A DNA stretch of 64,000 nucleotides. Origin: Deltaproteobacteria bacterium (GTDB lineage Bacteria > Desulfobacterota > Desulfobaccia > Desulfobaccales > 0-14-0-80-60-11). How positions within the stretch are numbered: position 1 is the stretch's first letter; each line of letters opens with the position of its first letter. The notes beneath the pieces are model-generated. The model made no database searches. It was not told where the DNA came from and saw only the letters and a list, made by a program, of their open reading frames with translations. The position numbers and the translations under genes were made by a program. The stretch covers positions 1,669 through 65,668 of the forward strand of contig JAUSOZ010000015.1 of NCBI GenBank assembly GCA_030655955.1, written 5' to 3'. Positions 6,465 through 28,624 of this stretch are shown here, one piece after another.

Positions 6465-6594
6465 AGACCCGAAGTAGCTAATTTTTTCTGAGGAAAATCA
6501 AAAAATTAATCAATCTCGCCCGCCAGCAATGCATTGCTGTTAAAAGGATTTTTTTTTATACTGCTTTAGTTATGCGTCTTACCCAGAGAGGGTT

Positions 6595-8610
6595 ATGATT
6601 ATGGGTTTCTTTCGGAAGATGACTGAAGAAGAGCACCCCAAGCTGGCTCAGGAGCTGGTGGAACTGCGTGCCGCGGTGCAAAAAGCCCAACTGCCGGAGT
6701 CGGTGGCCGCCATTGCCGCCAAGGAGTTGGAGCGGCTGGACAAAACCGATGCCTCCGTGGCCGAGTACAGCATCGGCATCAACTACCTGGATTACCTGAT
6801 CTCCCTGCCCTGGAACCGCTTCACGGAAGATAACCTTGACCTCAAGAGGGCGGAGCGCATCCTGGAGTCCCAGCACTTTGGCCTCCATCATGTCAAAGAG
6901 CGCATCCTGGAGTTTCTGGCGGTCCGCACCCTGTGCAGTGTCCAGACCTCCCAGATCCTGGTGGTGGACGACGAGGAAATCGCCCGGACTAACCTGGAAT
7001 ATATCCTGAGAAAAGAAGGCCACCAGGTGACCACTGCGGCCAATGGCCTGGAAGCCCTGGAAAAGGTCAAGGCCCAGGAGTTCGACGTCGTTCTCACCGA
7101 TCTGAAGATGGAGAAGATGGACGGCATTCAGCTGCTGGAATCCGTCAAGCAGATCGCGCCCCATACTGAAATTGTCATGGTTACCGGTTACGCCACGGTG
7201 AGCTCCGCAGTCGACGCCCTGAAAAAGGGCGCGGCGCACTACTTATCCAAGCCCATCAAACTCGATGAGCTCAGGGCCACGGTGCGGGAAATCATCGACA
7301 AAAAGCGGCACGTGCAGATGAACCGAGGGCCCGTGCTGTGCTTCGCCGGGCCTCCCGGCACCGGCAAGACCTCCATCGGCCAGGCCATCGCCGAGGCCCT
7401 GGAACGCAAGTTCGTGCGCCTGTCCCTGGCAGGGCTTAGGGACGAGGCGGAGCTGCGGGGCCACCGCCGCACCTACGTGGGGGCCATGCCCGGGCGCATC
7501 ATCAACGAACTCAAGCGCCTGGAGGTCAAGAACCCCGTGTTCATGCTGGATGAAATCGACAAGATCGGCCAGGATTTTAGGGGCGACCCGGCCTCGGTGC
7601 TGCTGGAAATCCTGGATCCCCAGCAAAACTCTAAATTCGTCGACCACTACGTGGACGTGCCCTTTGACCTGTCCGGCGTCATGTTCATCACCACCGCCAA
7701 CGTGGTGGAGACCTTGCCCGCGCCCCTCCTGGACCGCCTGGAGGTCATCTATTTTCCCGGCTACACCGAGCAGGAAAAAATCCAGATCTCCCAGCACTTT
7801 CTCGTCCCCCGTCAACTCCGGGAACACGCCCTGGCGCACCTGGGAATCGAGTTTACCGATCCCGCGGTTGCCAAGGTCATCGGCGGCTACACCCGGGAGG
7901 CGGGTCTCCGCAACCTGGAGCGGGAAATTGCCATGGTCTGCCGCAAACTGGCCCGCATCTGCGTCCAGAGCAAGGGGACCTGCGCTCTCAGTATCGACGA
8001 AGAGTTGGTGGAGAAATTTCTCGGACCCCGAAAATTTACCCACGAAGTGGCGGAGGTCGGCAATCAGGTGGGGGTGACCACGGGTCTGGTCTGGACCGAA
8101 TTCGGCGGGGAAATCATCTTCGTGGAAGCCACTCGCATGCGGGGACACAAGCAGTTGATGCTCACCGGCTCCCTGGGCACCGTCTTGCAGGAATCAGCCC
8201 AGACCGCGCTGTCCTATATCCGCAGCCACGCCGAGGCCTTCGACCTGGACCCGGACTTCTTCACCGAGAGTGACATCCACATCCACCTGCCCTCCGGGGC
8301 CATCCCCAAAGAAGGGCCCTCCGCCGGGGTCACCATCGCCCTGGCCCTGCTCTCCTTGCTCACCGGACGGCCCGCCCGCCGGGACGTGGCCCTGACCGGC
8401 GAGCTGACCCTTTCCGGCCGCATCCTGCCGGTGAGCGGCATCAGAGAGAAGGTTCTGGCGGCCCAGCGGGCCGGGGTCAAGGTGGTGGTCTTCCCCAAAA
8501 AAAACGAAGTCGACATCGTCAACCTGGAAGATCAGGTCAAGGCGGGCTTGGAGATTGTCCTGGCCGAGGCCATTGAACCCCTGGTGGACCTGGTGCTGCT
8601 GCCTAAATGA
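6595..8610 (+). CDS. lon: Lon-family ATP-dependent protease lacking the LON N-domain and carrying an inserted response-regulator receiver domain
   Basis: aa 1-110 align to the Lon helical linker (LISLPWN, HFGLHHVKERILEFLAV). aa 121-236 form a complete REC domain (VVDDEE, LTD169LKM, MVTGY, LSKP). These are followed by Walker A GPPGTGKT, Walker B FMLDEIDK, and the protease Ser (PKEGPSAGVT) and Lys (GIREKVLAA). The ATG at 6601 has better RBS spacing (GAGAGGG) than 6595. Confidence 0.9.
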   Translation: MIMGFFRKMTEEEHPKLAQELVELRAAVQKAQLPESVAAIAAKELERLDKTDASVAEYSIGINYLDYLISLPWNRFTEDNLDLKRAERILESQHFGLHHVKERILEFLAVRTLCSVQTSQILVVDDEEIARTNLEYILRKEGHQVTTAANGLEALEKVKAQEFDVVLTDLKMEKMDGIQLLESVKQIAPHTEIVMVTGYATVSSAVDALKKGAAHYLSKPIKLDELRATVREIIDKKRHVQMNRGPVLCFAGPPGTGKTSIGQAIAEALERKFVRLSLAGLRDEAELRGHRRTYVGAMPGRIINELKRLEVKNPVFMLDEIDKIGQDFRGDPASVLLEILDPQQNSKFVDHYVDVPFDLSGVMFITTANVVETLPAPLLDRLEVIYFPGYTEQEKIQISQHFLVPRQLREHALAHLGIEFTDPAVAKVIGGYTREAGLRNLEREIAMVCRKLARICVQSKGTCALSIDEELVEKFLGPRKFTHEVAEVGNQVGVTTGLVWTEFGGEIIFVEATRMRGHKQLMLTGSLGTVLQESAQTALSYIRSHAEAFDLDPDFFTESDIHIHLPSGAIPKEGPSAGVTIALALLSLLTGRPARRDVALTGELTLSGRILPVSGIREKVLAAQRAGVKVVVFPKKNEVDIVNLEDQVKAGLEIVLAEAIEPLVDLVLLPK

Positions 8611-9217: not shown

Positions 9218-9466
9218 GTACTCGGAGGCCGTTGTTCTCCGGGAAGTCCGCCGGCGCACCCATGGCGCCTGGTGATGCTTGCCGACCGCGGTTACGGGCG
9301 CTGGGTGCGCCCAGTGATCAGGATTCGGGTCCGGCGGCTGGCAGAGTGAGGGCCTTTTCTTAGGCAGCCCTTTCAGAGCGGGTGCTCCTGGTTTTCAGGT
9401 AATGCTTGCAGAATTGCCTCCTTCTCCCCTATAAAGAGAAAATAATGATTGTTTTTTTCAAATCAC

Positions 9467-9492
9467 TTGGCTATTCTTCTTATAAAATACCG
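9467..9492. promoter_or_regulatory. 8-6-8 palindrome (GCTATTCT-N6-AAAATACC), predicted ModE-like operator
   Basis: ttGGCTATTCTtcttatAAAATACCg lies immediately upstream of the modE-like start at 9495. It has the same architecture as the boxes at 9903, 9991 and 16561. Confidence 0.45.
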
Positions 9493-9494
9493 TT

Positions 9495-9881
9495 ATGAAA
9501 GGTAAGAAGCCTGACCACGGCAGGGGAACCGCTTTAGCGGCCAGCCCGGAAACCCAAGGGACGCAGATCAAAGGTCGCCTCTGGCTGGAGAAGTCTGGCG
9601 AAACCTTCATAAGCTGGGGCCGGGTGGTCCTGCTGGAGCGGATCAAAGAAACCGGTTCCATCGCCGCCGCCGCCCGCTCTCTGGAGATGGCTTACAGCCA
9701 TGCCTGGACCCTGGTGGCCAACATGAACCGTCTGGCCGGGGAAGAATTGGTGGCCCGGACCTTCGGAGGCAAGAACGGCGGCCGGGCCTGGCTCACCCCC
9801 GCCGGGGAGGCGGCCATCGCCCAATTCTGGGAGGTGGCTGGCAAGTTTAAGGGATGGCTGAAAAAGCAGGATGTTGAGTAG
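9495..9881 (+). CDS. ModE-family N-terminal (winged-helix) molybdate/tungstate-type regulator, no Mop domains
   Basis: GRLWLEKSGETFISWGRVVLLERIKETGSIAAAARSLEMAYSHAWTLVANMNRLAGEELV matches the ModE N-terminal HTH domain. The protein is only 128 aa, so the C-terminal di-Mop oxyanion-binding part is absent. Confidence 0.8.
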   Translation: MKGKKPDHGRGTALAASPETQGTQIKGRLWLEKSGETFISWGRVVLLERIKETGSIAAAARSLEMAYSHAWTLVANMNRLAGEELVARTFGGKNGGRAWLTPAGEAAIAQFWEVAGKFKGWLKKQDVE

Positions 9882-9902
9882 TTGCATTAAATTATTTTGG
9901 CA

Positions 9903-9927
9903 GCGCTATTTTATTAAAAGAATAGCC
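9903..9927. promoter_or_regulatory. 8-6-8 palindrome GCTATTTT-N6-AGAATAGC (distal box upstream of fdhA)
   Basis: gcGCTATTTTattaaaAGAATAGCc is embedded in an ~32-bp unit (ttttggcaGcgctattTtattAaaagaataGc). That unit is repeated 88 bp downstream. Confidence 0.5.
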
Positions 9928-9990
9928 AAGAAGGGGAGCCGCCTCCAGACGGGGCCGGTTGCCTGATTAATGCCTTATTAAGTTTTGGCA

Positions 9991-10016
9991 TCGCTATTCT
10001 ATTGAAAGAATAACGC
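9991..10016. promoter_or_regulatory. 8-6-8 palindrome GCTATTCT-N6-AGAATAAC (proximal box upstream of fdhA)
   Basis: tcGCTATTCTattgaaAGAATAACgc lies 14 nt upstream of the fdhA ATG region. It resembles the published E. coli ModE operator architecture (CGCTATATA-N-TATATAACG). Confidence 0.5.
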
Positions 10017-10029
10017 AAAGGAGATTGGT

Positions 10030-12063
10030 ATGGATTTCCGCTCGGTTCTCACCACGTGTCCTTACTGCGCCGTAGGCTGCAACCTCCTCTTACAGGTGTT
10101 GGATGGGCAGATCATCGGCACCCTGCCGGCGAAAACCGGACCGTCCAACCAAGGCAGCCTCTGTATCAAAGGCTGGAATGTGCATGAATTTATCCAGCAT
10201 AAGGACCGCCTGACCAAACCCCTCATTCGCCAGGGCGGTTCTCTTAAGGAAACCACCTGGGATGACGCCCTGGATTATGCCGCCTCCCAGTTGACGAGTC
10301 TCAAGGACCAGTATGGTCCGGAGAGCGTCGTCTTCGCGGGCTCGGCCCGCTGCACCAATGAAGAAACCTATATCTTTCAAAAATTTGCCCGCGCCGTGTT
10401 CGGTCATAACCACATCGATCACTGCGCCCGTCTCTGACACGCTCCGACGGTGGCCGGGCTGGCCGCCGCCTTTGGCAGTGGGGCGATGACCAATTCCTTT
10501 GCCGAATTGGAAAAGGCCAATTGTATTTTCGCCATCGGCACGAACACTACGGTGGCTCACCCCATTGCTTCCATGCGCCTCATGCGGGCCAAGGCCAATG
10601 GGGCCAAGCTGATTGTGGTCGACCCCCGGAGGACCCAGATCGCCTCCCTGGCCCATCTGCATATACAGCACCGCCTGGGAACCGACGTGGCCCTGATCAA
10701 CGGCATCATGCATATCATCTATAAGAATGGCTGGCACAACCAGGCTTTTATAGAGGCGCGGACGGAGAATTTCCCGGCCCTGATGGAGATGATCGATAAA
10801 TTCCCCCCGGAGCGGGTCTCCGAGATCACTGGAGTGCCGGTGGCCCAACTCCAACAGGCGGCGGAATGGTACTCCCAGGCCGAGGCCAGCGCCATCTGCT
10901 ACGTCTTGGGCATCACGCAGCATTCCACCGGCACCGACAACGTCAAGAGCCTGGCCAACCTGGCCATGATTTGCGGCCATATCGGCCGGCCCTCCACCGG
11001 GGTCAATCCCATCCGGGGACAGAATAACGTCCAGGGGGCCTGTGACATGGGCTGCCTGCCCAATGTCTTTCCCGGCTACCAGTATATTACCGTCCCGGAG
11101 AACCTGGAGAAGTTTGCCAAGGCCTGGAACGCCAAGTTATCGCCCACCCCCGGCCTCACCATGTTCGAGCAGATCGATGCGATTCTGGAAGGGAAAGTTA
11201 AAGGGCTGGTGGTCTTTGGAGCCAATCCGGTGACGAGCTACCCCGATGTCAACCGGGTGGAAAAGGCTATGAAAGCCCTGGAGTTCTTGCTGGTCATGGA
11301 CATCTTCCCCACCCCAACCACGGAGTTTGCCCACGTGGTACTCCCCGCGACCTCGTTTGCGGAGTCGGACGGCACCTTCTCCAGCTCCGAGCGCCGGGTG
11401 CAGCGGGTGCGGCCCGCCATCGACCCCATCCCGGGAAAGACCAACTGGGAAGCCATCCAGGAACTCTCCACCCGCATGGGGTATCCCATGAATTTCACCT
11501 CGGGAGAGGACATCTTCAACGAAATGGCCTCCCTGACCCCGGCCTTCGGGGGCATGACTTTTGAGCGCCTCAATGAGAAGGGCCTTTGCTGGCCCTGTCC
11601 CACCCCGGACCATCCCGGCACCCAATATTTGCATAAAGACAGGTTCGCCCGGGGCTTGGGGGCCTTTCAGTCCATCGACTACCGGCCGCCGGCCGAGGCC
11701 CCGGACGCCGAGTATCCCCTGTGGCTGACCACCGGCACCCTCTTCACCCATTATCTCACCGGCACCATGACCCGGCGGTGTCCCTCTCTGCATCATGAAA
11801 ATCCGGTGGTGGAAGTGGAAATCCATCCTGAAGACGCCCACCGCCTGCACATCCAGCCGGGGGAGGAGGTTAAGGCCACCAGCCGCCGGGGCAGCATCAT
11901 GGTCAAGGCCTTGGTAACCGAGCGGGTCAAGCCCGGGGTGGTGTTCATCCCGCTGCATTTCGCCGAAAACGCCGCCAACCGGCTCACCAATGCGGCCTTG
12001 GATCCTATTACCAAGACCCCGGAATACAAGGTGTGCGCGGTCAGCTTGGACAAAGTGGCATAA
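10030..12063 (+). CDS. fdhA: Formate dehydrogenase catalytic (molybdo/tungstopterin) subunit, selenocysteine-containing, FdhF/FdhA type
   Basis: The track ORFs 10030..10437 and 10450..12063 are in the same frame and are separated only by TGA at 10435-10437, which sits in the active-site motif [26 protein letters not shown]. There is an N-terminal 4Fe-4S motif (CPYCAVGC..C), no Tat signal, and molybdopterin oxidoreductase motifs throughout. Confidence 0.92.
10446..10470 (+). other. Putative bacterial SECIS hairpin
   Basis: GACGGUGGCC-GGGCU-GGCCGCCGCC forms a 10-bp stem (one A.C mismatch, one G.U pair) and starts 11 nt after the UGA. The apical loop falls ~22-26 nt from the U of UGA. Confidence 0.5.
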
Positions 12064-12072
12064 ACCCCCAAC

Positions 12073-12112
12073 TTCACCCCCACCCCACCCCTTCCCCCGG
12101 GGTGGGGGTGAA
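12073..12112 (+). other. Strong GC hairpin between fdhA and the FmdE-like gene (no T-tract)
   Basis: TTCACCCCCACCCC ... GGGGTGGGGGTGAA gives a perfect 14-bp stem. It is followed by ccataact rather than a U-run, so it is probably an RNA-stability or processing element rather than a terminator. Confidence 0.4.
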
Positions 12113-12150
12113 CCATAACTCAGCCCACGGTTACTCTCGGTGATCAGGAT

Positions 12151-13785
12151 ATGCATATCGGCTCTTATTCCTACGACGATTTTATGCAACTGGTTAAGTC
12201 TTTCCATGGCAATGTGGCTCCCGGCGTCGTCATCGGCGGCATCATGGTCGAGGTGGCCCGGCGCCGTCTCCCGGCGGAGATCTTGTTTGACGCGGTCTGC
12301 GAAACCCGGAATTGTCTTCCCGACGCGGTCCAGCTTCTCACCCCGTGCACCATCGGCAACGGCTGGCTCAAGGTGATCAACGTGGGACGCTTCGCCCTCA
12401 GCCTTTACGATAAGTACGAGGGGAAAGGGGTGCGGGTCTTTCTGGACCCGGTGCAGGTGGCCGACTGGCCGGAAATTAATACCTGGTATCTCAAGCTCAA
12501 ACCCAAAAAGGAGCAGGCCCCGGCCCTGCTGCTGGAAGAAATCCGGCAGGCCGGGGCGGAAATCCTGGGATGGCAGCAAGTCCAAATCCGGCCCCAGTTT
12601 CTCGGCAAGCGCCACCGGGGCCGTATAGTCGTCTGCCCTCTGTGCCGGGAAGCCTATCCGGCCGCAGATGGCGGCATCTGCCGGGCCTGCCAGGGCGAGC
12701 CCCTTTATCTGGCTGATGGGAGGGAAGCAGAAGCGGCCTTTGAGGCCCCGGCGCTGCACTTGTTGCCGGTGGAGCAGGCGGTGGGCCACCGGGCCCTGCA
12801 CGATATGACCATGATCAACCCTGGGGCCAGTAAAGGCCCGGCCTTTAACAAGGGCCATATCATCGGGGTGGGGGACCTCTGCCGCTTGCAGCAGATGGGC
12901 CGGCGGCACCTCTATGTGATGACGGAAGATCAGGTCGGCCCCGAGTGGGTGCACGAGAATGAAGCCGCCCTGGCCTTTGCCCAGGCCATGGCTGGAGAAG
13001 GAGTCACCTTTAGCGAACCTCCCCGGGAAGGCAAGGTCAATCTGGTAGCCGGTCGGGACGGGCTCCTGGTGGTGGATGAACCTAGGCTGGAGAGCTTCAA
13101 CCTGGTGCCCGGGGTCATGTGCGCCTGCCGCCAGGGCTACTCGGTGCTCAGCCAGGGCCGGATGCTGGGCGGCACCAGGGCGATTCCCCTGTTTCTGCCC
13201 CGGGCCGATTTTCATAAGGCCATGGCCCTGTTGAGCGACGGGCCCCTGTTCAGCGTGCTCCCCCTGCGTCAACCCCGGGTCGGCATTCTGGTAACCGGCA
13301 CCGAGGTCTTCATGGGGCTGGTGGAGGATAAATTCGTCCCCATCATCAGCACCAAGGTGGAGAAATTCGGCGGTCAAGTGCTGAAATCCTTGATCGTGGC
13401 CGACGATCGCCGAGCCATCGGCCAAGGGGTGCAGGAACTGCTGGACTGCGGCATTGATCTTTTGGTGACCACCGCCGGGCTCTCCGTGGACCCCGATGAC
13501 GTTACCCGCCAGGGACTGGTGGACGCCGGCGCCACGGATATGCTGTATGGCGCCCCCATTTTGCCGGGGGCCATGACCTTGCTGGCCCATATCGGGAGCG
13601 TCCAGGTTATGGGGGTGCCGGCCTGCGCCCTCTTCTTCAAGACCACCAGTTTCGATCTCCTGCTGCCGCGCCTTTTGGCGGGCCTGGAAATCACCCGGCG
13701 CGATCTGGCCCGCCTGGCTAACGGCGCATTTTGTCTGGAGTGCAAGGTATGCACTTTTCCTCAGAAATGCCCCTTCGGGAAATAA
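12151..13785 (+). CDS. FmdE-domain / Zn-ribbon / MoeA-N-like / molybdopterin-binding (MoCF) domain fusion protein
   Basis: N-terminal FmdE motifs (FHGNVAPGVVIGG, DAVQLLTPCTIGNG). Zn-ribbon CPLCREAYPAADGGICRACQG. C-terminal MogA/MoaB-like domain (VGILVTGTEVF ... DLLVTTAGLSVDPDDVT ... ILPGAMT), ending with CLECKVCTFPQKC. Confidence 0.75.
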   Translation: MHIGSYSYDDFMQLVKSFHGNVAPGVVIGGIMVEVARRRLPAEILFDAVCETRNCLPDAVQLLTPCTIGNGWLKVINVGRFALSLYDKYEGKGVRVFLDPVQVADWPEINTWYLKLKPKKEQAPALLLEEIRQAGAEILGWQQVQIRPQFLGKRHRGRIVVCPLCREAYPAADGGICRACQGEPLYLADGREAEAAFEAPALHLLPVEQAVGHRALHDMTMINPGASKGPAFNKGHIIGVGDLCRLQQMGRRHLYVMTEDQVGPEWVHENEAALAFAQAMAGEGVTFSEPPREGKVNLVAGRDGLLVVDEPRLESFNLVPGVMCACRQGYSVLSQGRMLGGTRAIPLFLPRADFHKAMALLSDGPLFSVLPLRQPRVGILVTGTEVFMGLVEDKFVPIISTKVEKFGGQVLKSLIVADDRRAIGQGVQELLDCGIDLLVTTAGLSVDPDDVTRQGLVDAGATDMLYGAPILPGAMTLLAHIGSVQVMGVPACALFFKTTSFDLLLPRLLAGLEITRRDLARLANGAFCLECKVCTFPQKCPFGK

Positions 13786-14059
13786 GCTTGGTGGTCGAAC
13801 TTCACCTCTTCCCGGGTTACCGGATTGGCCCCAAGTTGCGATAGAGGTCTGGGGCAACCCGCCTTAAAAGAATACCTAAATGTAAAACTAATCACTGGCA
13901 CTATTCACTAATTATACATTATCGTATTTTTAAGGAGCAAAAGGCTGCCGTGAATTTATCTCCTAAATCTATTTTACTAATAAATAAGATAAGTTAGTAA
14001 TTTGATCAAATTGGGGGCATGGAACTTGCCTTTCCCTAATAGCAAAATATCGCTTAGGA

Positions 14060-14746
14060 ATGTGGACGGGTATCGTGAATTTCGCCGTGGATTTAACCCC
14101 TTTATGGTTGACCTTAAAAGTGGCAGGAGTGGCCACCCTGGTGACTTTTATCGTCGGGGTGAGTCTGGCCTTCCTGGTGGCCCGGAGCCGGTTTTGGGGC
14201 CGGGAAGGTCTGGACGCCCTGTGCACCCTGCCCCTGGTGCTGCCGCCCACGGTCCTGGGCTACTACCTCATCGTCCTGATCGGGCGGAATGGTTGGTTGG
14301 GCCGCTGGCTCCAGGAAACCTGGGGGATTTCCTTAATTTTTACCTGGCAGGGCGCGGTCCTGGCCGCGGCCGTGGTGTCCCTGCCCCTGATCTTCAAATC
14401 GGCCCCGGCTGCCTTTGAAGAGGTGAACCTTGAGCTGGAAAATGCCGCCCGCACTCTGGGCCTGTCCGAGACGGCGGTCTTTTTCCGGGTATCTCTCCCC
14501 CTGGCCTGGCGGGGGATTCTGGCCGGGGGCATGCTGGCCTTCGCCCGGGCCATGGGTGAGTTCGGCGCCACCCTGATGGTGGCCGGCAACCTTCCCGGCA
14601 AGACCCAGACCCTGTCCCTGGCCGTGTACGACGCGGTCCAGGCCGGCAATGACGCGAGAGCCACCGTCCTGGTAATTATCATTTCGACGGTATGCCTTAC
14701 CATCCTGGTGGTCTCCGGCAAGGCCTTCAAGGCTGGCTATATGTGA
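14060..14746 (+). CDS. modB: Molybdate ABC transporter permease
   Basis: ModB-typical LTPLWLTLKVA, CTLPLVLPPTVLGYYL and the EAA loop ENAARTLGLSETAVFFRVSLPLA. Confidence 0.85.
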   Translation: MWTGIVNFAVDLTPLWLTLKVAGVATLVTFIVGVSLAFLVARSRFWGREGLDALCTLPLVLPPTVLGYYLIVLIGRNGWLGRWLQETWGISLIFTWQGAVLAAAVVSLPLIFKSAPAAFEEVNLELENAARTLGLSETAVFFRVSLPLAWRGILAGGMLAFARAMGEFGATLMVAGNLPGKTQTLSLAVYDAVQAGNDARATVLVIIISTVCLTILVVSGKAFKAGYM

Positions 14747-14762
14747 AGGAAAGGAGATTTGT

Positions 14763-15524
14763 GTGACTAATCTGAAGTCCATCATCATGCTGTTATTGGG
14801 TGTTATGCTTATCTGGCCGGCGCCGGCCCTGGCCGACCAGGAACTGATCGTCTCCGCTGCTGCCAGCCTCACCAATGCCATGAAGGAGGCGGCCGGGCAA
14901 TTCGAGGCCACCCATCCCGGCACCAAAATCCTGTGTAATTTTGCATCATCCGGTTCCTTGCTGCAGCAAATGGCTCACGGCGCCCCGGTGGACGTGTTTG
15001 CCGCGGCGGACCAAAAGACCATGAATCAGGCCCAGGAGAAGGGGCTCATCGTGCCGGCCAGCCGGAAAAATTTTGTCAGCAACAGCCTGGTGCTCATCAA
15101 ACCTCTGGATTCCCCACTGGCCTTGGGCGGTCTTCAGGACCTGGCCAAACCGGAGGTGAAGCGGGTGGCGGTGGGTAACCCGGCCACTGTGCCCGCAGGG
15201 CGTTACACCAAAGAGGCCCTGGTGAAGGCGGGTCTGTGGGATCAGCTGAGCCCCAAGTTCATCATGGCGGAGTCGGTGCGCCAGGTCCTGGATTACGTCG
15301 GCCGGGGCGAGGTGGACACGGGCTTTGTTTATTCAACCGACGCGGCCATTGCCCGGGGGAAGGTCAAGGTCATGCAGACGGTGGAGGGCCACGCCCCCAT
15401 CCTCTATCCCCTGGCCATCACCGCGGCCACGGGAAAGAAAGTCCTGGCCCAGAGCTTTGTTGATTTTATCTTGAGCCCGGCTGCCCAGGAGATCTTCAAG
15501 AAATATGGCTTTGGCCCAGCCTAG
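14763..15524 (+). CDS. modA: Molybdate-binding periplasmic protein
   Basis: GTG start preceded by AAGGAGA. Signal peptide, then ELIVSAAASLTNAM ... NFASSGSLLQQ ... VDVFAAAD ... VAVGNPATVPAGRY ... GFVYSTDA, typical of ModA. Confidence 0.85.
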   Translation: MTNLKSIIMLLLGVMLIWPAPALADQELIVSAAASLTNAMKEAAGQFEATHPGTKILCNFASSGSLLQQMAHGAPVDVFAAADQKTMNQAQEKGLIVPASRKNFVSNSLVLIKPLDSPLALGGLQDLAKPEVKRVAVGNPATVPAGRYTKEALVKAGLWDQLSPKFIMAESVRQVLDYVGRGEVDTGFVYSTDAAIARGKVKVMQTVEGHAPILYPLAITAATGKKVLAQSFVDFILSPAAQEIFKKYGFGPA

Positions 15525-15568
15525 CCGGTTCAGCAGGGTTACCCGCGGGTAGCAAGGCCGATAACATC

Positions 15569-16312
15569 ATGAAAATCATGGTAGATATCAAAAAACGGTT
15601 GTGGTCGGGACGGCGGGTCTTCCGCCTGGAAGTGGCGTTTGCCTCGGATAAAGACTTCGTCGTCCTGTTCGGTCCCTCGGGGGTGGGCAAAAGTCTCACC
15701 CTGCAGACGATCGCCGGCCTCACTACCCCGGATGAAGGGCGCATCGTGGTGGGGGAGCGAACCCTTTTCGATTCCTCCCGGAAGATCAGGGTACCGGCCC
15801 GCCATCGGAACGTGGGCTATGTCTTCCAGGATTACGCCCTGTTTCCCCACCTGACGGTGGCCCAGAATGTTTCTTTCGGTCTGAAACAAGGCTGGCCCTG
15901 GTACCTGCCGCGGGGAGAACGGCTGCGCCTGGATGAGGCGCTGGAGATTTTTGAGTTGACTCCCCTGAAATACTCCCTGCCCCGGGACCTGTCCGGAGGA
16001 CAACGGCAGCGAGTCGCCCTGGCCCGGGCCCTCATCCGTCGCCCCAGCCTGCTGCTCCTGGATGAGCCGTTTTCATCCCTGGATGCCCTGCTGCGAGTCA
16101 AAATGCGCCAGGAACTTTTGAAGCTTAAGGAGCGGTTTACCATTCCGGTCATACTCATAACCCATGATCCCCAGGACGTGGCGGCCCTGGCGGAAACCGT
16201 GGTGGTCTATGAACATGGCCGGGTGAGTAAAATAATTTCACCACCCAAACACGATTACCCGGTAAGGGAACGCCCCTCGTTATCATCCTGGGCCGCCAAC
16301 CTGTGCGCATGA
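15569..16312 (+). CDS. modC: Molybdate-type ABC transporter ATPase, short form without TOBE domain
   Basis: Walker A GPSGVGKS, signature LSGGQRQRVALARAL, Walker B LLLLDEPFSSLD. At only 247 aa it has no C-terminal TOBE/Mop region. Confidence 0.8.
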   Translation: MKIMVDIKKRLWSGRRVFRLEVAFASDKDFVVLFGPSGVGKSLTLQTIAGLTTPDEGRIVVGERTLFDSSRKIRVPARHRNVGYVFQDYALFPHLTVAQNVSFGLKQGWPWYLPRGERLRLDEALEIFELTPLKYSLPRDLSGGQRQRVALARALIRRPSLLLLDEPFSSLDALLRVKMRQELLKLKERFTIPVILITHDPQDVAALAETVVVYEHGRVSKIISPPKHDYPVRERPSLSSWAANLCA

Positions 16313-16560
16313 ACTCGTCGCCAGAGAGAGCCGGGATTCATTCCCCACAATTACCTGATGGATAGGCTCGGAACCAGCGTCTTACTATCTACACCCACCC
16401 GCAGCGCCTGAGTGCTTTAGCTCAAAAGTAAAAACCTGAAGCCGGCGTTAAACGAGGGTGCCTCATCCCTGCGAGCCCCTGACCCCCCGGTATTCCCCTG
16501 AAATTCCGCCAGCCGCGCTAAGAAATTTTGTCGCAAAATCTCTGGTTTTGTTTTATGATC

Positions 16561-16590
16561 TTCGCTATTCTTACAAACAAATATCGGCAA
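16561..16590. promoter_or_regulatory. Weaker 8-6-8 box (GCTATTCT-N6-CAAATATC) upstream of the tupA-like gene
   Basis: ttcGCTATTCTtacaaaCAAATATCggcaa. The left half is identical to the other boxes and the right half is partial. It lies inside the spurious N-terminal extension of track ORF 16528. Confidence 0.35.
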
Positions 16591-16611: not shown

Positions 16612-17472
16612 ATGCGGATCAAGAATTTATTGTCACTGTTTGCAGTTATCGCTCTCGTGATGTTGGGAACTTCGTGCTATGCCGGGGACCAGCCCGCCGC
16701 GGTTTATGGCAACGGCGCTAACCAATTTTCCCTGGCCACCGGCAGCCCCGGGGAGTTAGGGCTTTTACAGGTCCTGGCCGAGGCCTTCGGCAAGCAGGAC
16801 AACGCCAAAATGACCTGGTTTAAAGCCGGTTCGGGTAAGTCCCTGCAACTTCTGAAAGACAAGAAAGTGGACATGATCATGGTGCACGCCCCGGCGGCGG
16901 AAAAGAAGGCGGTACAAGATGGCTGGGCCACTAAGAAAACCCTCCTCGGCTCCAATGAGTTTTTCATCGTGGGTCCGGCCAATGACCCGGCCAAGATCGC
17001 CGGGGCCAAAACCGCGGTAGACGCTTACCGCCGCATTGCCGCCGCCAAGGCCAAGTTCTTCTCCCGGGGCGATAATTCCGGGACTCATAAGAAAGAAATG
17101 GGTATATGGAAGAAAGCCGAAATCAAGCCCCAGGGCGACTGGTACGTGGTCACCAAGGATTTTATGACCGCCACCTTAAAACGGGCCAACCAGGAAAAGG
17201 GTTATTTCATGGTGGACAGCAGCACCTGGGTGGCCGACAAGAAGGATGTTCCGAACCTGAAAATTCTCTTCAAAGGCGACAAACTGCTGGTGAATACCTA
17301 CCATGCGCTCTGCCAGCCGTCCGGCGCCACTCCGGGTGCGGGCACGGCCGCCAAATTCATCGACTTTGTGGCTTCTCCCCAGGGGCAAAAAATTATTCAG
17401 GATTACGGCCAGGACAAATATGGCACGGGGTTGTATAACGACGCGGCCTACGCCAAGCAATACGACGATTAA
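16612..17472 (+). CDS. TupA-like periplasmic oxyanion-binding protein (divergent paralog)
   Basis: ATG at 16612 is preceded by GGAGGAG and opens a lipoprotein-like signal peptide (MRIKNLLSLFAVIALVMLGTSCYAG). It shares SRGDNSGTHKKE and the overall alignment with the downstream TupA, but has LATGSPGELGL where TupA has ASTTSTQNSGL. Confidence 0.75.
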   Translation: MRIKNLLSLFAVIALVMLGTSCYAGDQPAAVYGNGANQFSLATGSPGELGLLQVLAEAFGKQDNAKMTWFKAGSGKSLQLLKDKKVDMIMVHAPAAEKKAVQDGWATKKTLLGSNEFFIVGPANDPAKIAGAKTAVDAYRRIAAAKAKFFSRGDNSGTHKKEMGIWKKAEIKPQGDWYVVTKDFMTATLKRANQEKGYFMVDSSTWVADKKDVPNLKILFKGDKLLVNTYHALCQPSGATPGAGTAAKFIDFVASPQGQKIIQDYGQDKYGTGLYNDAAYAKQYDD

Positions 17473-17542
17473 TCGGCGCGCCCCCGGTCGAACCCGGATC
17501 AGCCTTCCCTGTGGGGATAGACAAGCATAAGGAGAGAAAGGC

Positions 17543-18358
17543 ATGGCCAGAATTCTGTTGATAATGTCTCTGATAGGTTCACTGTTCATGGCTGCTAACG
17601 TTGCGGCGGAAACCCGGATCAAGTGCGCCTCTACCACCAGCACCCAAAATTCAGGACTGTTCGATTACCTGTTGCCCATCTTTGAGAAAAAGACCGGCAT
17701 CAAGGTGGACGTGGTGGCCGTGGGCACCGGCGCGGCCATCGAAATTGGCAAGCGGGGCGACGCCGACGTCGTGTTAGTGCACGCCAAGAACCAGGAATTG
17801 AAGGCCGTGGCCGAGGGGGCCTTCGTCAATCGCCATGACGTGATGTATAATGATTTTGTCGTCATCGGCCCGGCCAAAGATCCTCTGAAAATCAAAGGCA
17901 TGAAGACTGCGGCGGATGCCTTCAAGAAGATTGCGGACCAGAAGGCTGAATTTGTGTCTCGGGGGGATAAATCCGGCACCAATACCAAGGAGCTGGCCCT
18001 CTGGAAGAGCGCCGGCATCGATCCCAAGGGTCAGAAATGGTATTTGGAGGTGGGCCAGGGCATGGCAAAGACCCAGCGCATCGCCAATGAGAAGCGGGCC
18101 TACACCCTCACCGACCGGGGCACCTGGTTGGCCACCAAGGATAAGGATAAGCTGGAAATGGTGGTGGTGCTGGAAGGCGACCCCGTCCTGTTCAATCAAT
18201 ACGGGGTGATGGCGGTGAATTCCGAAAAACATAAGCAGGTGAAATATAAGGAGGCCATGGCCTTCGTGGATTGGCTCATCTCGCCGGCAGGCCAAAAGGC
18301 CATCGGTGACTATAAAGACAAGCTCGGGAATCAACTTTTTACTCCTAATGCCAAATAA
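17543..18358 (+). CDS. tupA: Tungstate-binding periplasmic protein
   Basis: Signal peptide, then the ASTTSTQNSGL (TTTS-type motif) and SRGDKSGTNTKE motifs typical of TupA. Confidence 0.85.
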   Translation: MARILLIMSLIGSLFMAANVAAETRIKCASTTSTQNSGLFDYLLPIFEKKTGIKVDVVAVGTGAAIEIGKRGDADVVLVHAKNQELKAVAEGAFVNRHDVMYNDFVVIGPAKDPLKIKGMKTAADAFKKIADQKAEFVSRGDKSGTNTKELALWKSAGIDPKGQKWYLEVGQGMAKTQRIANEKRAYTLTDRGTWLATKDKDKLEMVVVLEGDPVLFNQYGVMAVNSEKHKQVKYKEAMAFVDWLISPAGQKAIGDYKDKLGNQLFTPNAK

Positions 18359-18389
18359 CTGCGGCGGATAGGGCAGTCGCGTATGAGTT

Positions 18390-18417
18390 GTAGGGGCGGT
18401 GCCCTCACCGCCCCTAC
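18390..18417. repeat. GTAGGGGCGG..CCGCCCCTAC hairpin repeat (family B) between tupA and tupB
   Basis: gtaggggcggtgccctcaccgcccctac. The same stem sequence recurs at 23575, 45905 and, as a variant, at 43467. Confidence 0.7.
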
Positions 18418-18481
18418 GAGAACTTTTTTAAGCAGACCGAACCATGGGTTAGGAACTCTGGTCTGCCCTGGTTAATGCTCT

Positions 18482-19201
18482 ATGCAATCCATCCTCGAAG
18501 GGTTTGCTGCGGCCTTCCGGCTCATCGTCACCGGTAATCCGGAGCTGTGGCGCATTATCCTGTTATCTCTTGAGGTTTCGGGCACGGCCCTGATCCTGGC
18601 CACCGTCCTGGGCCTGCCGGTGGGCGCCTGCCTGGCTATGCGCCGGGTGCCGGTCAAGGGTTTGGTGATCAGCCTGCTCAACACCGGTATGGGCCTGCCG
18701 CCCGTGGCCGCGGGGTTGTTCCTCTACCTGTTTCTGTCCCGCAGCGGTCCCTTGGGGTTCATGGGCTTGCTCTACACCCCCACCGCCATGATCATTGTCC
18801 AGTGCATCCTCGCCTTCCCCATTGTGGCCTCCCTGTCCCATGCCGCCATTGCCAACGTGGACCCGGTGATCCGGCAGGCGGCCGTTACCCTGGGAGCCAC
18901 CCCCATCCAGGAGAGCCTCGCCGTCGTCAAGGAGGCCAGATACTCCATCATGGCGGGGGTCATGGCCGGGCTGGGCCGGGTCATGGCGGAGGTGGGGGCC
19001 ATCATTATCGTCGGCGGCAACATCGCCGGGTACACCCGGGTAATGACCACCACCATCGCCCTGGAGACCGACAAGGGCAACTTTGAACTGGCCATTGCCC
19101 TGGGAATAATTCTCTTGACCATCTCCTTTTCCATCACCGTGGCTCTGCGCTTTTTTCAAAGGCTGGGGCGCACCGGGACTTCGGCTGCTTCATGGGCTTA
19201 G
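18482..19201 (+). CDS. tupB: Tungstate ABC transporter permease
   Basis: Five or more TM helices and a binding-protein-dependent permease EAA-like loop (QAAVTLGATPIQESLAVVKEARYS). Position between tupA and tupC supports the call. Confidence 0.8.
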   Translation: MQSILEGFAAAFRLIVTGNPELWRIILLSLEVSGTALILATVLGLPVGACLAMRRVPVKGLVISLLNTGMGLPPVAAGLFLYLFLSRSGPLGFMGLLYTPTAMIIVQCILAFPIVASLSHAAIANVDPVIRQAAVTLGATPIQESLAVVKEARYSIMAGVMAGLGRVMAEVGAIIIVGGNIAGYTRVMTTTIALETDKGNFELAIALGIILLTISFSITVALRFFQRLGRTGTSAASWA

Positions 19202-19845
19202 AGCTGAAAATCGCGCACGTCTTCCGGAGTTACAACGGCAATCCCATTCTGCGCGATTGCTCTTTTGGCTTCGCCAGTGGGCGCACTTACGTGCTGCAGG
19301 GTCCCAACGGCAGCGGCAAATCCACCCTGTTCCGGGCCCTGGCCCTGTTGGAAAAACCCGACCGCGGCCGGGTAGAGTACCGCGACGGCGGCCGGATTCT
19401 TGCCGCCGACCTGGAATTGCGGCGCCGCATCACCCTGGTACTCCCCAGCACCGGCATTTTCAACACCACGGTGTTCAAAAATGTGGCTTATGGCCTGAAG
19501 ATCAGGGGGGTTACCGGCGCCGACCGAGAGGCGCGGGTCAATGACGCCCTGGCGGCCGTGGGCCTGGCGCATAAGAAATGGCACCGGGCCTCGGAGCTTT
19601 CCAGCGGCGAAACCAAGCGCCTGGGGATTGCCCGGGCCATGGTGATTAACCCGGAAGTCCTGATGCTGGATGAACCCACCGCCAACATTGACCCGGCCAA
19701 TACGGCAATCATCGAGTCCATTATTTTGAAGATGCGGCAGGAGCGGTCCGCCACCATCCTGATGATCACCCACGATCCGGCCCAGGCGGAGCGGTTGGGT
19801 GATGACCTGCTGTTCATGCAAGAGGGCAAAATTATCCCGGCCTGA
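19192..19845 (+). CDS. tupC: Tungstate ABC transporter ATPase
   Basis: Walker A GPNGSGKS, signature LSSGETKRLGIARAM, Walker B VLMLDEPTANID. The start overlaps the tupB end by 10 nt. Confidence 0.8.
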   Translation: MGLELKIAHVFRSYNGNPILRDCSFGFASGRTYVLQGPNGSGKSTLFRALALLEKPDRGRVEYRDGGRILAADLELRRRITLVLPSTGIFNTTVFKNVAYGLKIRGVTGADREARVNDALAAVGLAHKKWHRASELSSGETKRLGIARAMVINPEVLMLDEPTANIDPANTAIIESIILKMRQERSATILMITHDPAQAERLGDDLLFMQEGKIIPA

Positions 19846-20435: not shown

Positions 20436-23006
20436 CTATCCGGCGGCGGCTTCTTGGGGGCGGAGGCATTTGAGGCCGTAGTCTCCGGTTTTGAAGGCGT
20501 TGAGGATGCGCTCCATGACGGCGTCGGAGGTCAGGGCCAGGTCGAGCTGGCGGCAGAAGGCGATGAGGAGTCCGGCCAGTTCCAGGGTCTGTTCGGTTTC
20601 CAGGAGGGAGAGCTTGACCAGGCGGCCCTGAACCAGGTCGCCTTTGGTCTGGGCCTTGAAGCCCAGGTCGTCCAGGATCCGTTTGACCAGGCGGGCCCGG
20701 CGCTCCCGGCGGTCGATGTTGGCGGCGCCGCCCTTGAATTGGAAGCTGATGTAGTTGTCGTTTTTCTCCTCCGAGATGAAGGCGTCGACGATGCCGAAGT
20801 GGTAGCCGATGCGGGAGTTGAAATTGAGGTAGGACTCGGTGACGATGGCGAAGCTCTTGCCCCCCAGGCCGCGCTCGGACTTGGCGGTGTCGTACATGGT
20901 GTTGGCAAAGACCGAGATGAAGCCCTTGAGGTCCGGGGCCACCTGGCCGGCCCAGACCACCCCGGGGTGGTGGAAGCCCCGGAGCAGGGCCTTGAAGGGG
21001 CGGCTTAAGATGTCGGCCTCGGTGACCTGCTCGGCGCCGGTTTCCCTAAGGCCGCCCCCCAGGTCGAGGATGAACAGATTGAGGGGCAGGTCGGTTTTGA
21101 GGCGGCTGACGTGATGGGATGCCAAGGCCTTCTCCATGTCCGGGATAAACATGGCGTCCATGGCCTTTTCGTGACAGAACCGGGTGATGTCGTGGAGGGT
21201 GCGGCAGTTAACCGCCTTAAACTCCGGGCTCTCGGGGTCGAGGAGGTTCAGGCGGGAGACGGATTTCAAGATGCGGCGCAATTTGAGGAAGACCGGGTCA
21301 CTGCGCCAGGCTTCATCCGGTTTCACCTGGCGGGCCAGCAACTCGTGCATGATGCCGGGATAGATGAGGGCGGCGTCGGCGTCGACGGTGACTATCTGGC
21401 CGGGGGTGAGGGTCTTGGTGGCGCCGCCCACCTCCACCAGGGTGGGAATGCGGAACTCCCGGGCCAGGATGCTCATGTGGCCGGTGGGACTGCCCACTTC
21501 GGTGATGATGGCGGCAATGCGGTCCATGACCAGCACCAGGCGGGCTGAGGGCTGGCGGCCCACCACCACGGCGCCGGGCGGAATGCGGCTGACATCTTCA
21601 TCGTGGAGGAAGAGGTGGACCCGGCCGGCGGCCACGCCCCCCACCGCCCGGATGCCGTGGTGGAGGATGGGCGCCACCATGGGTTCGGGGACGGGGGGCC
21701 GCTCCTCGGCGGCAAAGGCCGGGGCGCTGATCCTCAGGGGCCGGGATTGGAGGATGATGAGGTTGCCCGCCTCGCCCACGGTCCACTCGATATCCTGGGG
21801 GTGGCCGAAGTGGTCCTCCAATTGCAGGGCAATTTCGGCCAGGGTCCGGACCTGGTCGTCGGTGAGGCAGGGGGCCTGGGCCTGTTCCGGGGCCAGGGAA
21901 ATTTCTTCCACTCCCCCAGCCGGGCCACAGGTGAGGGCGACGGGTTTTTCGGCTACCCGGCGCTGGGTGATGGAGTGGGGGGCCTGCCGGCTCACCTGAA
22001 AGAGGTCCGGGGACACGGTGCCGTCCACGGCGTACTGGCCCAGGCCCCACACCGCCGAAATCATCACGGTGTCGTCCTGGGGGGCCTGGGGGTCCAGGGA
22101 GAACATGACGCCGCTGGCCCGGGCCGGGACCATGGCCAGGACGCCCACGGCCATGGGGAGCGAGTTGACGGAAAACTGTTGGTATTTCCAGTAGAAGATG
22201 GCGCGAGAGGTAAACTTGCTGGCCACGATCTCCTTGTAGTGACCGGGTAAGGATGCGGCGTCGACGTTCAAGAGGGTGGCGAACTGGCCGGCAAAAGAGA
22301 ATTCGGTGTCCTCGCCCACGGCGCTGGAGCGCACCGCCAGCCAGTGGGTGGGCAGGTCTTGGCCCGCCTGGACGATGGCTGCTTCCAGGTCCGGGGGCAG
22401 GGGGGCCCGGCGCACCATGGCCTGCAACTCCTGGCTGATGACCCTGAGGCTGTCCAGGTCTTCGATGTTGGCCTGGGAGAGTTTGTCGTAAAGGTCGGCG
22501 GCCAGGCTGGAGGATTCCAGGAAGCGTTTGTAGGCCGCGGCGGTAATGGAAAAGCCCTGGGGCACCGGCAGGCCGACGCGGTTGCCGATCTCGCCGAGGT
22601 TGGCCATCTTGCCGCCCACCGCCGGGGCCAGTTCCCGGTGCAGAGCCGATAGGGGCAGGATGAACGGGGTATCGGGGATGGTGGGGACCGCTTCCAACTC
22701 CGCCAGCATCTCGTCCTGCAGACGCCTACAGATGGGGACCAGGTCGGATTGATAGCGGTTGTTGGTCAGGAGGTTGAGGGCGTTTACCATACCGGAGACC
22801 TGTTCGCCCAGGGCATTCACCTGTGAAGAGATATAGCTGGAGTCAAAGACGAAATCGCCGGAGAGTTTTTCCTCCATGTCCGCCATGGTGTCCAGGGCCT
22901 GGTTGTTGTTGTCGAGCAGGCGCCGGAAATGGACAAATTTCTCCTGCAAACGGACCTGTTCGGTCGGTTCGGGGTCTTTGAGAAAGCGCCGCAGGAATTT
23001 TAGCAT
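20436..23006 (-). CDS. Dikinase-like protein P1: N-terminal helical region + PPDK-N ATP-grasp + phosphohistidine swivel domain + unrecognised ~300-aa C-terminal domain
   Basis: GGKMANLGEIGNRVGLPVPQGF, VRSSAVGEDTEFSFAGQ and PQDIEWTV..LIILQSRP indicate a PPDK-N / PEP-synthase nucleotide domain. GSPTGHMSILAREFRIPTLV is the swivel His. The C-terminal domain carries NCRTLHDITRF, LDLGGG, RIGYHF, NDNYISFQFKGGAA and RRERRARL. No PEP-utilizer TIM-barrel motifs are seen. Confidence 0.85.
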   Translation of the reverse strand: MLKFLRRFLKDPEPTEQVRLQEKFVHFRRLLDNNNQALDTMADMEEKLSGDFVFDSSYISSQVNALGEQVSGMVNALNLLTNNRYQSDLVPICRRLQDEMLAELEAVPTIPDTPFILPLSALHRELAPAVGGKMANLGEIGNRVGLPVPQGFSITAAAYKRFLESSSLAADLYDKLSQANIEDLDSLRVISQELQAMVRRAPLPPDLEAAIVQAGQDLPTHWLAVRSSAVGEDTEFSFAGQFATLLNVDAASLPGHYKEIVASKFTSRAIFYWKYQQFSVNSLPMAVGVLAMVPARASGVMFSLDPQAPQDDTVMISAVWGLGQYAVDGTVSPDLFQVSRQAPHSITQRRVAEKPVALTCGPAGGVEEISLAPEQAQAPCLTDDQVRTLAEIALQLEDHFGHPQDIEWTVGEAGNLIILQSRPLRISAPAFAAEERPPVPEPMVAPILHHGIRAVGGVAAGRVHLFLHDEDVSRIPPGAVVVGRQPSARLVLVMDRIAAIITEVGSPTGHMSILAREFRIPTLVEVGGATKTLTPGQIVTVDADAALIYPGIMHELLARQVKPDEAWRSDPVFLKLRRILKSVSRLNLLDPESPEFKAVNCRTLHDITRFCHEKAMDAMFIPDMEKALASHHVSRLKTDLPLNLFILDLGGGLRETGAEQVTEADILSRPFKALLRGFHHPGVVWAGQVAPDLKGFISVFANTMYDTAKSERGLGGKSFAIVTESYLNFNSRIGYHFGIVDAFISEEKNDNYISFQFKGGAANIDRRERRARLVKRILDDLGFKAQTKGDLVQGRLVKLSLLETEQTLELAGLLIAFCRQLDLALTSDAVMERILNAFKTGDYGLKCLRPQEAAAG

Positions 23007-28489: not shown

Positions 28490-28624
28490 CGCTCCCCATT
28501 GCCGCAAATATAGACAGGACTGCCATTGGCATCAAACAATCAAAAATTATATCAAATTTTAGCTCAATTGCCAGTCCGCTCCGGCTGGCGCCCGGGCGTA
28601 TTTTGGGGCAAGGAACGGGGAGAG

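Follow-up and report, generated by a model that had tools for sequence, protein, structure and literature searches.

The window, by which we mean the whole 64,000 nt stretch of Desulfobaccales DNA analysed here (contig JAUSOZ010000015.1), carries a series of genes related to molybdenum and tungsten (Mo/W), in which a modE-like regulator gene is followed by the gene for the alpha subunit of a selenocysteine formate dehydrogenase (FDH), fdhA, by a fusion gene, fmdE-MoCF, by modB-modA-modC (modBAC) and by the tungstate transporter genes tupA1-tupA2-tupB-tupC (Table 1). Four copies of a 22-bp inverted repeat, hereafter the box, lie among these genes, one before the modE-like gene, two between it and fdhA and one before tupA1, and it is the box and its predicted regulator that are considered here. 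An earlier note on this DNA had proposed that these palindromes mark a Mo/W regulon; all four exist as it quoted them, its coordinates taking in 2–5 nt of extra flank.

Table 1. Genes, boxes and associated sequence features of the Mo/W locus (positions are those of the window; PWM, position weight matrix; bit values are PWM scores)
Feature	Position	Strand	Remarks
-35-like hexamer TTGTTT of the modE-like promoter (inferred)	9449-9454	+	conserved TTG spacing
Box 1	9470-9491	.	GCTATTCT-tcttat-AAAATACC; 1 mismatch; 33.2 bits
modE-like gene	9495-9881	+	128 aa; ModE N-terminal winged-helix domain only, without Mop/TOBE
Duplicated 30-nt unit	9895-9924 and 9983-10012	+	TTTTGGCA + box; 90% identity, 88 bp apart
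Box 2	9905-9926	.	GCTATTTT-attaaa-AGAATAGC; perfect palindrome, 0 mismatches; 40.0 bits
Box 3	9993-10014	.	GCTATTCT-attgaa-AGAATAAC; 1 mismatch; 36.3 bits
fdhA, selenocysteine formate dehydrogenase alpha subunit	10030-12063	+	in-frame TGA at 10435-10437
fmdE-MoCF, FmdE + zinc finger + MoCF_biosynth fusion	12151-13785	+	Pfam
Fifth candidate	13968-13989	.	PWM -0.6 bits; rejected as ModE-type box
modB-modA-modC	14060-16312	+	profile matches; box-free upstream
Box 4	16564-16585	.	GCTATTCT-tacaaa-CAAATATC; 2 mismatches; 28.3 bits
tupA1-tupA2-tupB-tupC, tungstate ABC transporter	16612-19845	+	profile matches

When the whole window was searched for the pattern GCTATTYT-N6-ARAATAGC with up to three mismatches, exactly four matches were found, these being boxes 1–4, and all four are intergenic. 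Shuffles of the whole window gave an expectation of 0.28 matches, and none of 100 yielded four. Because the intergenic DNA is poorer in GC than the coding DNA (53% overall, with AT-rich stretches and some segments down to 35–50%, against about 62%), a stricter control was used in which each intergenic segment was shuffled on its own 2000 times; this gave 0.0015 matches of at least 20 bits per trial versus the four observed. A PWM trained on 54 sites from other genomes, with the window sites left out, leads to the same four places: it has the consensus cGCTATTCT-N6-AGAATAGCg and ranks boxes 1–4 as the top four positions of the window, the runner-up reaching only 10.9 bits. Nor is the motif similarly frequent inside coding regions, an outcome that the note had set against its own idea, as no coding position of the window scores 12 bits or more.

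Each box stands close to a gene boundary. Box 1 is separated from the modE-like ATG by 3 nt, box 2 lies 24 nt downstream of the modE-like stop codon, the fdhA ATG is 15 nt past the end of box 3 with a Shine-Dalgarno sequence in the gap, and the tupA1 ATG lies 26 nt downstream of box 4. The duplication that had been noticed near fdhA is real, with a unit of 30 nt that takes in most of box 2 and of box 3, and is possibly a duplicated promoter-operator unit. We note also that the modE-like gene is flanked by a 27-nt inverted repeat (9466-9492 and 9904-9930, 89% complementary) that reaches past the palindromes into their flanks (CTTGGC and GCCAAG), and that box 1 is closer to the reverse complement of box 2 than to box 2 itself.

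Used as the query against species-representative genomes, the 128-aa protein yielded 32 loci at 70–95% identity and six distant ones (L001-L038); the 32 orthologous loci belong, where they are named specifically, to the Desulfobaccales, to Desulfobacca or to other former delta-proteobacterial groups. When these were compared from the start codon of the modE-like gene, a box was found at -25 to -4 in 27 of 31 loci, and when they were compared from the stop codon a second box was found about 25–45 nt past it in most. A box follows the modE-like gene in 30 of the 32, including L007, where it lies about 500 nt downstream and before tupA2. The gene that comes after modE-like varies among the loci and may be tupA2BC, tupA1, either of two types of fdhA, fmdE-MoCF or modC. 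The layout of box 3, close before fdhA, recurs in L022, L025, L026, L028, L030 and L032, and fmdE-MoCF has a box immediately upstream in L019 and L015. The box 4 variant is also found before tupA1 in L005, L011, L022 and L025, with other boxes before tupA1 in L014, L015, L024 and L027; altogether at least 20 loci have a conserved box upstream of one or the other tupA gene, and the tup genes are predicted targets on the basis of site conservation. Of the two it is tupA1 that has the box in front of it, and tupA2 takes this place in loci whose tupA1 is truncated or missing. A lone modC in L003 lies 217 nt downstream of a box.

Scanning 588 kb of these loci with the PWM gave 68 positions of at least 20 bits, all of them intergenic or within the first 120 nt of a called open reading frame (ORF) whose start is uncertain. 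All but two (L025 9795 and L028 7486) precede modE-like, fdhA or FDH-like genes, tupA1, tupA2, fmdE-MoCF or modC, and high-scoring sites outside the training set occur far from modE, before tupA1 in L005, L022 and L025 and before tupA2 in L007. By comparison, the box and the modE-like gene travel together, the box being kept before modE-like, fdhA(-fmdE/MoCF) and tup genes in about 30 Desulfobaccales species, and the proposal of a ModE-type operator marking a Mo/W regulon of the regulator gene, the selenocysteine fdhA and tupA is borne out by this conservation despite the shuffling of the genes.

In the PWM, positions G1, T3, A4 and T5 and their mirror positions each hold 1.8 bits of information, and the six spacer positions 0.3–0.45 bits. 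Among the 68 sites the variable pairs 2/21, 6/17 and 7/16 are non-complementary in 40, 17 and 27 respectively, with no compensatory pattern, and only six sites are perfect 8-bp palindromes. Folding energies are -6.9 kcal/mol for box 2 (z = -4.45) and -4.6 kcal/mol for box 3, and boxes 1 and 4, at -0.2 and -0.1 kcal/mol, form no stable hairpin; the whole modE-fdhA spacer gives z = -1.96, a value short of significance that comes from pairing between the palindromes. An Rfam scan of the whole window found no family at its gathering score, including the Moco riboswitch RF01055, and the scanner used found no terminator-like sites near the boxes. An RNA element was therefore rejected, on the missing Rfam family, the negative covariation count and the two unfoldable boxes; since the half-sites are conserved, the spacer is free, there is no covariation and two sites cannot fold, the evidence points to a protein operator, and such a pattern is typical of a DNA-binding protein that acts as a dimer.

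The modE-like product matches TIGR00637 (E=9e-21) and PF00126 (35.1 bits, above its cut-off). Among the structures of the Protein Data Bank its best match is 2ijl (E=1.5e-11), with E. coli ModE, 1b9m, at E=9e-9 and a further match to ModE structure 1o7l (1b9m and 1o7l, E~1e-8). No C-terminal tandem Mop/TOBE domains are present in the 128-aa protein, for which Pfam gives HTH_1 only. The orthologues are 127–151 aa long; the ORFs of L018, L024 and L027 have 151 aa instead of the usual 127–128 through a 24-aa C-terminal extension, and two metagenome-assembled genomes have two modE-like loci each (L014/L023 and L024/L027). Mop-less ModE-like genes of more distant relationship (36–53% identity) adjoin GCTATTCT-N6-AGAATAGC in WPS-2 genomes and in unassigned metagenome contigs of 55–68% GC, and homologues in Bacteroidota have related box variants adjacent. 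Scanning metagenome contigs for exact CGCTATTYT-N6-ARAATAGCG gave at least 120 loci; among the 120 matches listed, 14 adjoin a Mop-less ModE-like gene within 90 bp, which is far above chance for a gene of which a genome has about one or two copies. Among the matches listed there were no moa, moe or aor targets, and genes of these three kinds are absent from the window and from the loci compared. A high-GC repeat unrelated to the box, the near-perfect 24-bp palindrome CGCTATTTTGGCGCTAAAATAGCG, occurs in L040, L042, L044, L060-L064 and about 30 more metagenome loci, on contigs of 64–72% GC that come nearly all from one metagenome project (JAABU*).

The geometry of the box is G(C/T)TAT-N12-ATA(G/A)C. 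The E. coli K-12 modA operator, cGTTATATTGTCGCCTACATAACg, read from the genome sequence, fits this pattern in register, and the likeness to the E. coli ModE operator that had been pointed out earlier holds, in half-site and in spacing, for both the K-12 modA sequence and the published consensus, ATCGNTATATA-N6-TATATANCGAT (PMC545781); under our PWM the modA operator reaches 1.2 bits only. The four boxes are thus likely, to judge from sequence comparison, to be operators for a dimer of the Mop-less ModE-like protein encoded beside them.

The boxes might instead be bound by another Mo/W regulator encoded elsewhere, of the TunR or TaoR type, with the modE-like gene as one of its targets. Such regulators have the sensor domains that the 128-aa protein does not, a TunR-like gene precedes modBAC in L022 and a TaoR-like gene adjoins the modE-like gene in L028. 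We nevertheless regard this as improbable, since the window and the 37 loci of L001-L038 other than L022 are free of TunR/TOBE homologues, the Desulfovibrio motif associated with TunR, CGGTCACG-N14-CGTGACCG, is unrelated to the box (PMC545781), and the box has the half-site and spacing of proven ModE boxes and adjoins Mop-less ModE-like genes in distant phyla. The TunR architecture (Phage_integrase-like plus TOBE) was looked for in the window regulator and neither domain is present. The TaoR-like gene of L028 (HTH_17 and PBP_like domains; 6538-7524, minus strand) adjoins a gene for a TonB-dependent receptor as well as the modE-like gene, and between it and its neighbours lies a palindrome of 23 bits (7486-7507), GATATTTT-tagata-TAGATATC, with halves GATATTTT-N6-AGATATC.

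If the ModE-like protein binds the boxes, their positions, which overlap or abut likely core promoters, suggest that it represses. Upstream of the box before modE-like a TTG, itself preceded by a conserved A-rich tract, is present in 26 of 27 loci, at a distance of 21 nt (21 loci) or 20 nt (5 loci). In the window this TTG begins the -35-like hexamer TTGTTT, from which a 17-nt spacer leads to a -10-like TATTCT (9472-9477) inside the left half of box 1. Because the -10-like member of this conserved pair falls within box 1, a dimer bound there would block the -10 element and the modE-like gene would repress itself; its mRNA would carry a leader of only about 10 nt that has no Shine-Dalgarno sequence. 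For boxes 3 and 4, too, repression is the simplest reading, as they leave no space for an activator in a class I or class II position, and the 128-aa protein, judged from the box positions, would be a repressor.

Activation of fdhA and tup by the same protein, at least from the distal box 2, seems quite improbable to us. E. coli ModE, which activates moa, dmsA and napF, is a dual regulator (genome annotation; PMC12327845), and paired boxes 78–89 bp apart, which are found also in L002, L009, L029 and L032, give space for an upstream activating site; but fdhA starts 11–18 nt past the end of a single box in L022, L025, L026, L028 and L030, and the tupA1 ATG of L005 lies 26 nt past the end of a single box, which leaves no space for a downstream promoter. 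It is highly improbable, too, that the box is mainly a core-promoter signal, a -10-like TATTCT with a T-rich or -35 region, whose palindrome would be a by-product without a dedicated regulator. The left half does have TATTCT at the correct 17-nt distance from the conserved TTG, but the right half, ATA(G/T)C-G, is conserved like the left, each core position holding 1.8 bits, there are three different placements of the box with respect to the candidate -35/-10 elements, and the other intergenic regions of the window are box-free. That the palindromes work as transcript or DNA hairpins (terminator, attenuator or processing site) deserves hardly any credence, for although boxes 2 and 3 fold and a T-rich tract precedes the boxes located after modE, boxes 1 and 4 are practically unfoldable, variable positions disrupt pairing rather than covary, and neither a terminator-like site near the boxes nor an Rfam match in the window was found.

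Several points weigh against operators of a ModE-like repressor. The modE-like protein scores 73.8 bits against the NCBIfam ModE_repress model, whose curated cut-off is 98.5. The loci used for footprinting were retrieved via the modE-like gene, so that the co-localisation of box and gene is partly by construction. Many of the exact metagenome matches listed are unrelated to ModE, among them the high-GC repeat family of about 40 loci, a match with a TetR neighbour, one with a Sulf_transp (sulphur-transport-family) protein, a glycosidase and others; since unrelated palindromes also match exactly, the box pattern is not diagnostic by itself outside a ModE or Mo/W context. A consensus sigma-70 scanner at its threshold found no promoter near any box, and the promoter assignments given above were for this reason made by hand, from the conserved TTG spacing, and are held with moderate confidence. 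Finally, repression of a Mo/W enzyme along with tungstate uptake requires a physiological rationale.

A box is missing before modBAC. The earlier note had offered a weak fifth site upstream of modB; the sequence is present as quoted, but at -0.6 bits it is no instance of the motif and was rejected. No box was found upstream of modB in the window, where the best position has 4.4 bits, or in L013, L022 and L025, and modBAC cannot for that reason be assigned to the box regulon. An alignment of the modB upstream regions shows only a block specific to the window and L013, TCTATTTTACTAAT, which covers the fifth candidate (13968-14012), and a perfect 14-bp palindrome, AATTTGATCAAATT, stands at 13999-14012; either could be bound by a different regulator of modBAC. 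The TunR-type gene of L022 (14767-15966; Phage_integrase plus two TOBE domains) lies directly upstream of modBAC, which suggests a different regulator for molybdate uptake. We conclude that modBAC is probably outside the box regulon and handled by another regulator, which hints at separate Mo and W circuits.

The other genes of the locus can be described briefly. Both halves of fdhA match TIGR01591, with the motif CARL*HAPTV. The product of fmdE-MoCF has a treble-clef zinc finger and a MoaB/MogA-like MoCF_biosynth part; the gene is probably transcribed together with fdhA, which it follows in most loci that have both, and in L019 it is the first gene behind the box. It is possible that it acts as an FDH cofactor-insertion factor. 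No box was found between the tup genes in the PWM scan of the window, and these are therefore probably one operon. It begins with two tandem tupA genes (16612-18358), of which tupA1 is the more divergent (138 bits against the TupA model, versus 254 for tupA2). Other large genes of the window were tested as well; those with a Pfam match are unrelated to Mo/W (MlaE, TauE, PPDK-like, citrate transporter, carboxylases, Lon and histidine kinase), three have no Pfam match, and none has a box. The Lon protease (6595-8610) holds an inserted response-regulator receiver domain, and three PPDK_N/PEP-utilizer paralogues, each of about 855 aa, are encoded in the window (20436-23006 and 25940-28507 on the minus strand, 34381-36963 on the plus strand).

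The earlier note had further deduced autoregulation and oxyanion-dependent control of formate dehydrogenase and tungstate uptake. The position of the box before the regulator gene agrees with the former; dependence on an oxyanion is an analogy only, because neither the 128-aa protein nor its neighbours have a Mop/TOBE domain, and no Mop/TOBE partner is encoded among the ORFs after tupC. By analogy with Campylobacter jejuni Cj1507c, occupancy of the boxes might track tungstate or molybdate status via something other than a Mop domain of the protein itself, a partner protein or the cofactor being candidates for the status signal. A doubtful but fuller scheme is one of split sensing, in which the Mop-less ModE-like protein would repress tup, fdh and its own gene, a trans-acting Mo/W sensor would release or strengthen it, and modBAC would be under separate control of the TunR type. 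The sensor could be a separate TOBE/Mop protein or the finished tungsten or molybdenum cofactor, which might be handed over by the co-occurring FmdE-MoCF protein. If true, this would mean distinct W and Mo circuits in these bacteria.

The boxes provide a concrete conserved operator and a minimal predicted regulon for DNA-binding-only ModE proteins, namely the regulator gene, the selenocysteine fdhA together with its partner fmdE-MoCF, and the genes of the Tup tungstate transporter. They suggest that these sulfate reducers, which are acetate-oxidising or syntrophic, keep the control of tungstate uptake and FDH apart from that of molybdate uptake, and the conserved set of boxes makes the question of sensing directly testable in Desulfobaccales. 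The known picture of ModE-type DNA recognition is unchanged.

Among known systems E. coli ModE has a homologous DNA-binding domain, an operator with the outer half-site CG(C/T)TAT and TAT cores 12 nt apart, and a position for that operator close to the regulated start codon. It differs in having a di-Mop molybdate-binding domain, absent from the 128-aa protein, and its operator has ATA/TAT in the inner half-site where the window box has TCT/AGA, so that three inner bases differ. The E. coli ModE family controls modABC, whereas here modBAC is box-free and control is predicted for tup, fdhA and the regulator's own gene. The box of Methanosarcina acetivorans ModE, RTTATGT-N8-RCATAAY, has been proven by electrophoretic mobility shift assay (EMSA), which showed a need for both halves, and molybdate made no difference to binding in vitro (PMC12327845). 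Its geometry, GTTAT-N12-ATAAC, is identical to that of our box, but the protein is archaeal, has one Mop domain and serves a regulon centred on alternative nitrogenases.

Closer in architecture are ModE-type proteins that consist of the DNA-binding domain only. That of Agrobacterium tumefaciens (2IJL, 135 aa), the best match of solved structure, is alphaproteobacterial, its entry is titled 'molybdenum-binding transcriptional repressor', and the likeness is drawn from the protein alone. The single-domain ModE proteins of Desulfovibrio and Desulfotalea share this architecture and are from former delta-proteobacteria as well, but no E. coli-type sites were found for them, the motif of their mod operons is the CGGTCACG-N14-CGTGACCG mentioned above, and the mechanism by which such proteins sense Mo was called unclear (Rodionov et al. 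2004, PMC545781). C. jejuni Cj1507c, according to PMC3417520, is likewise of the ModE type, binds DNA, has no metal-binding domain and controls a tungstate transporter (tup), and its repression of mod and tup is metal-dependent despite the missing domain (Taveirne et al. 2009, as cited there); it differs, on the same account, in also repressing mod, where modBAC here is box-free, and in a reported coiled-coil domain, the 128-aa protein being too short for an extra domain. The boxes and their regulator would thus be an addition to the known family of ModE regulators, with a shifted inner half-site and a regulon centred on tup and fdh without modBAC.

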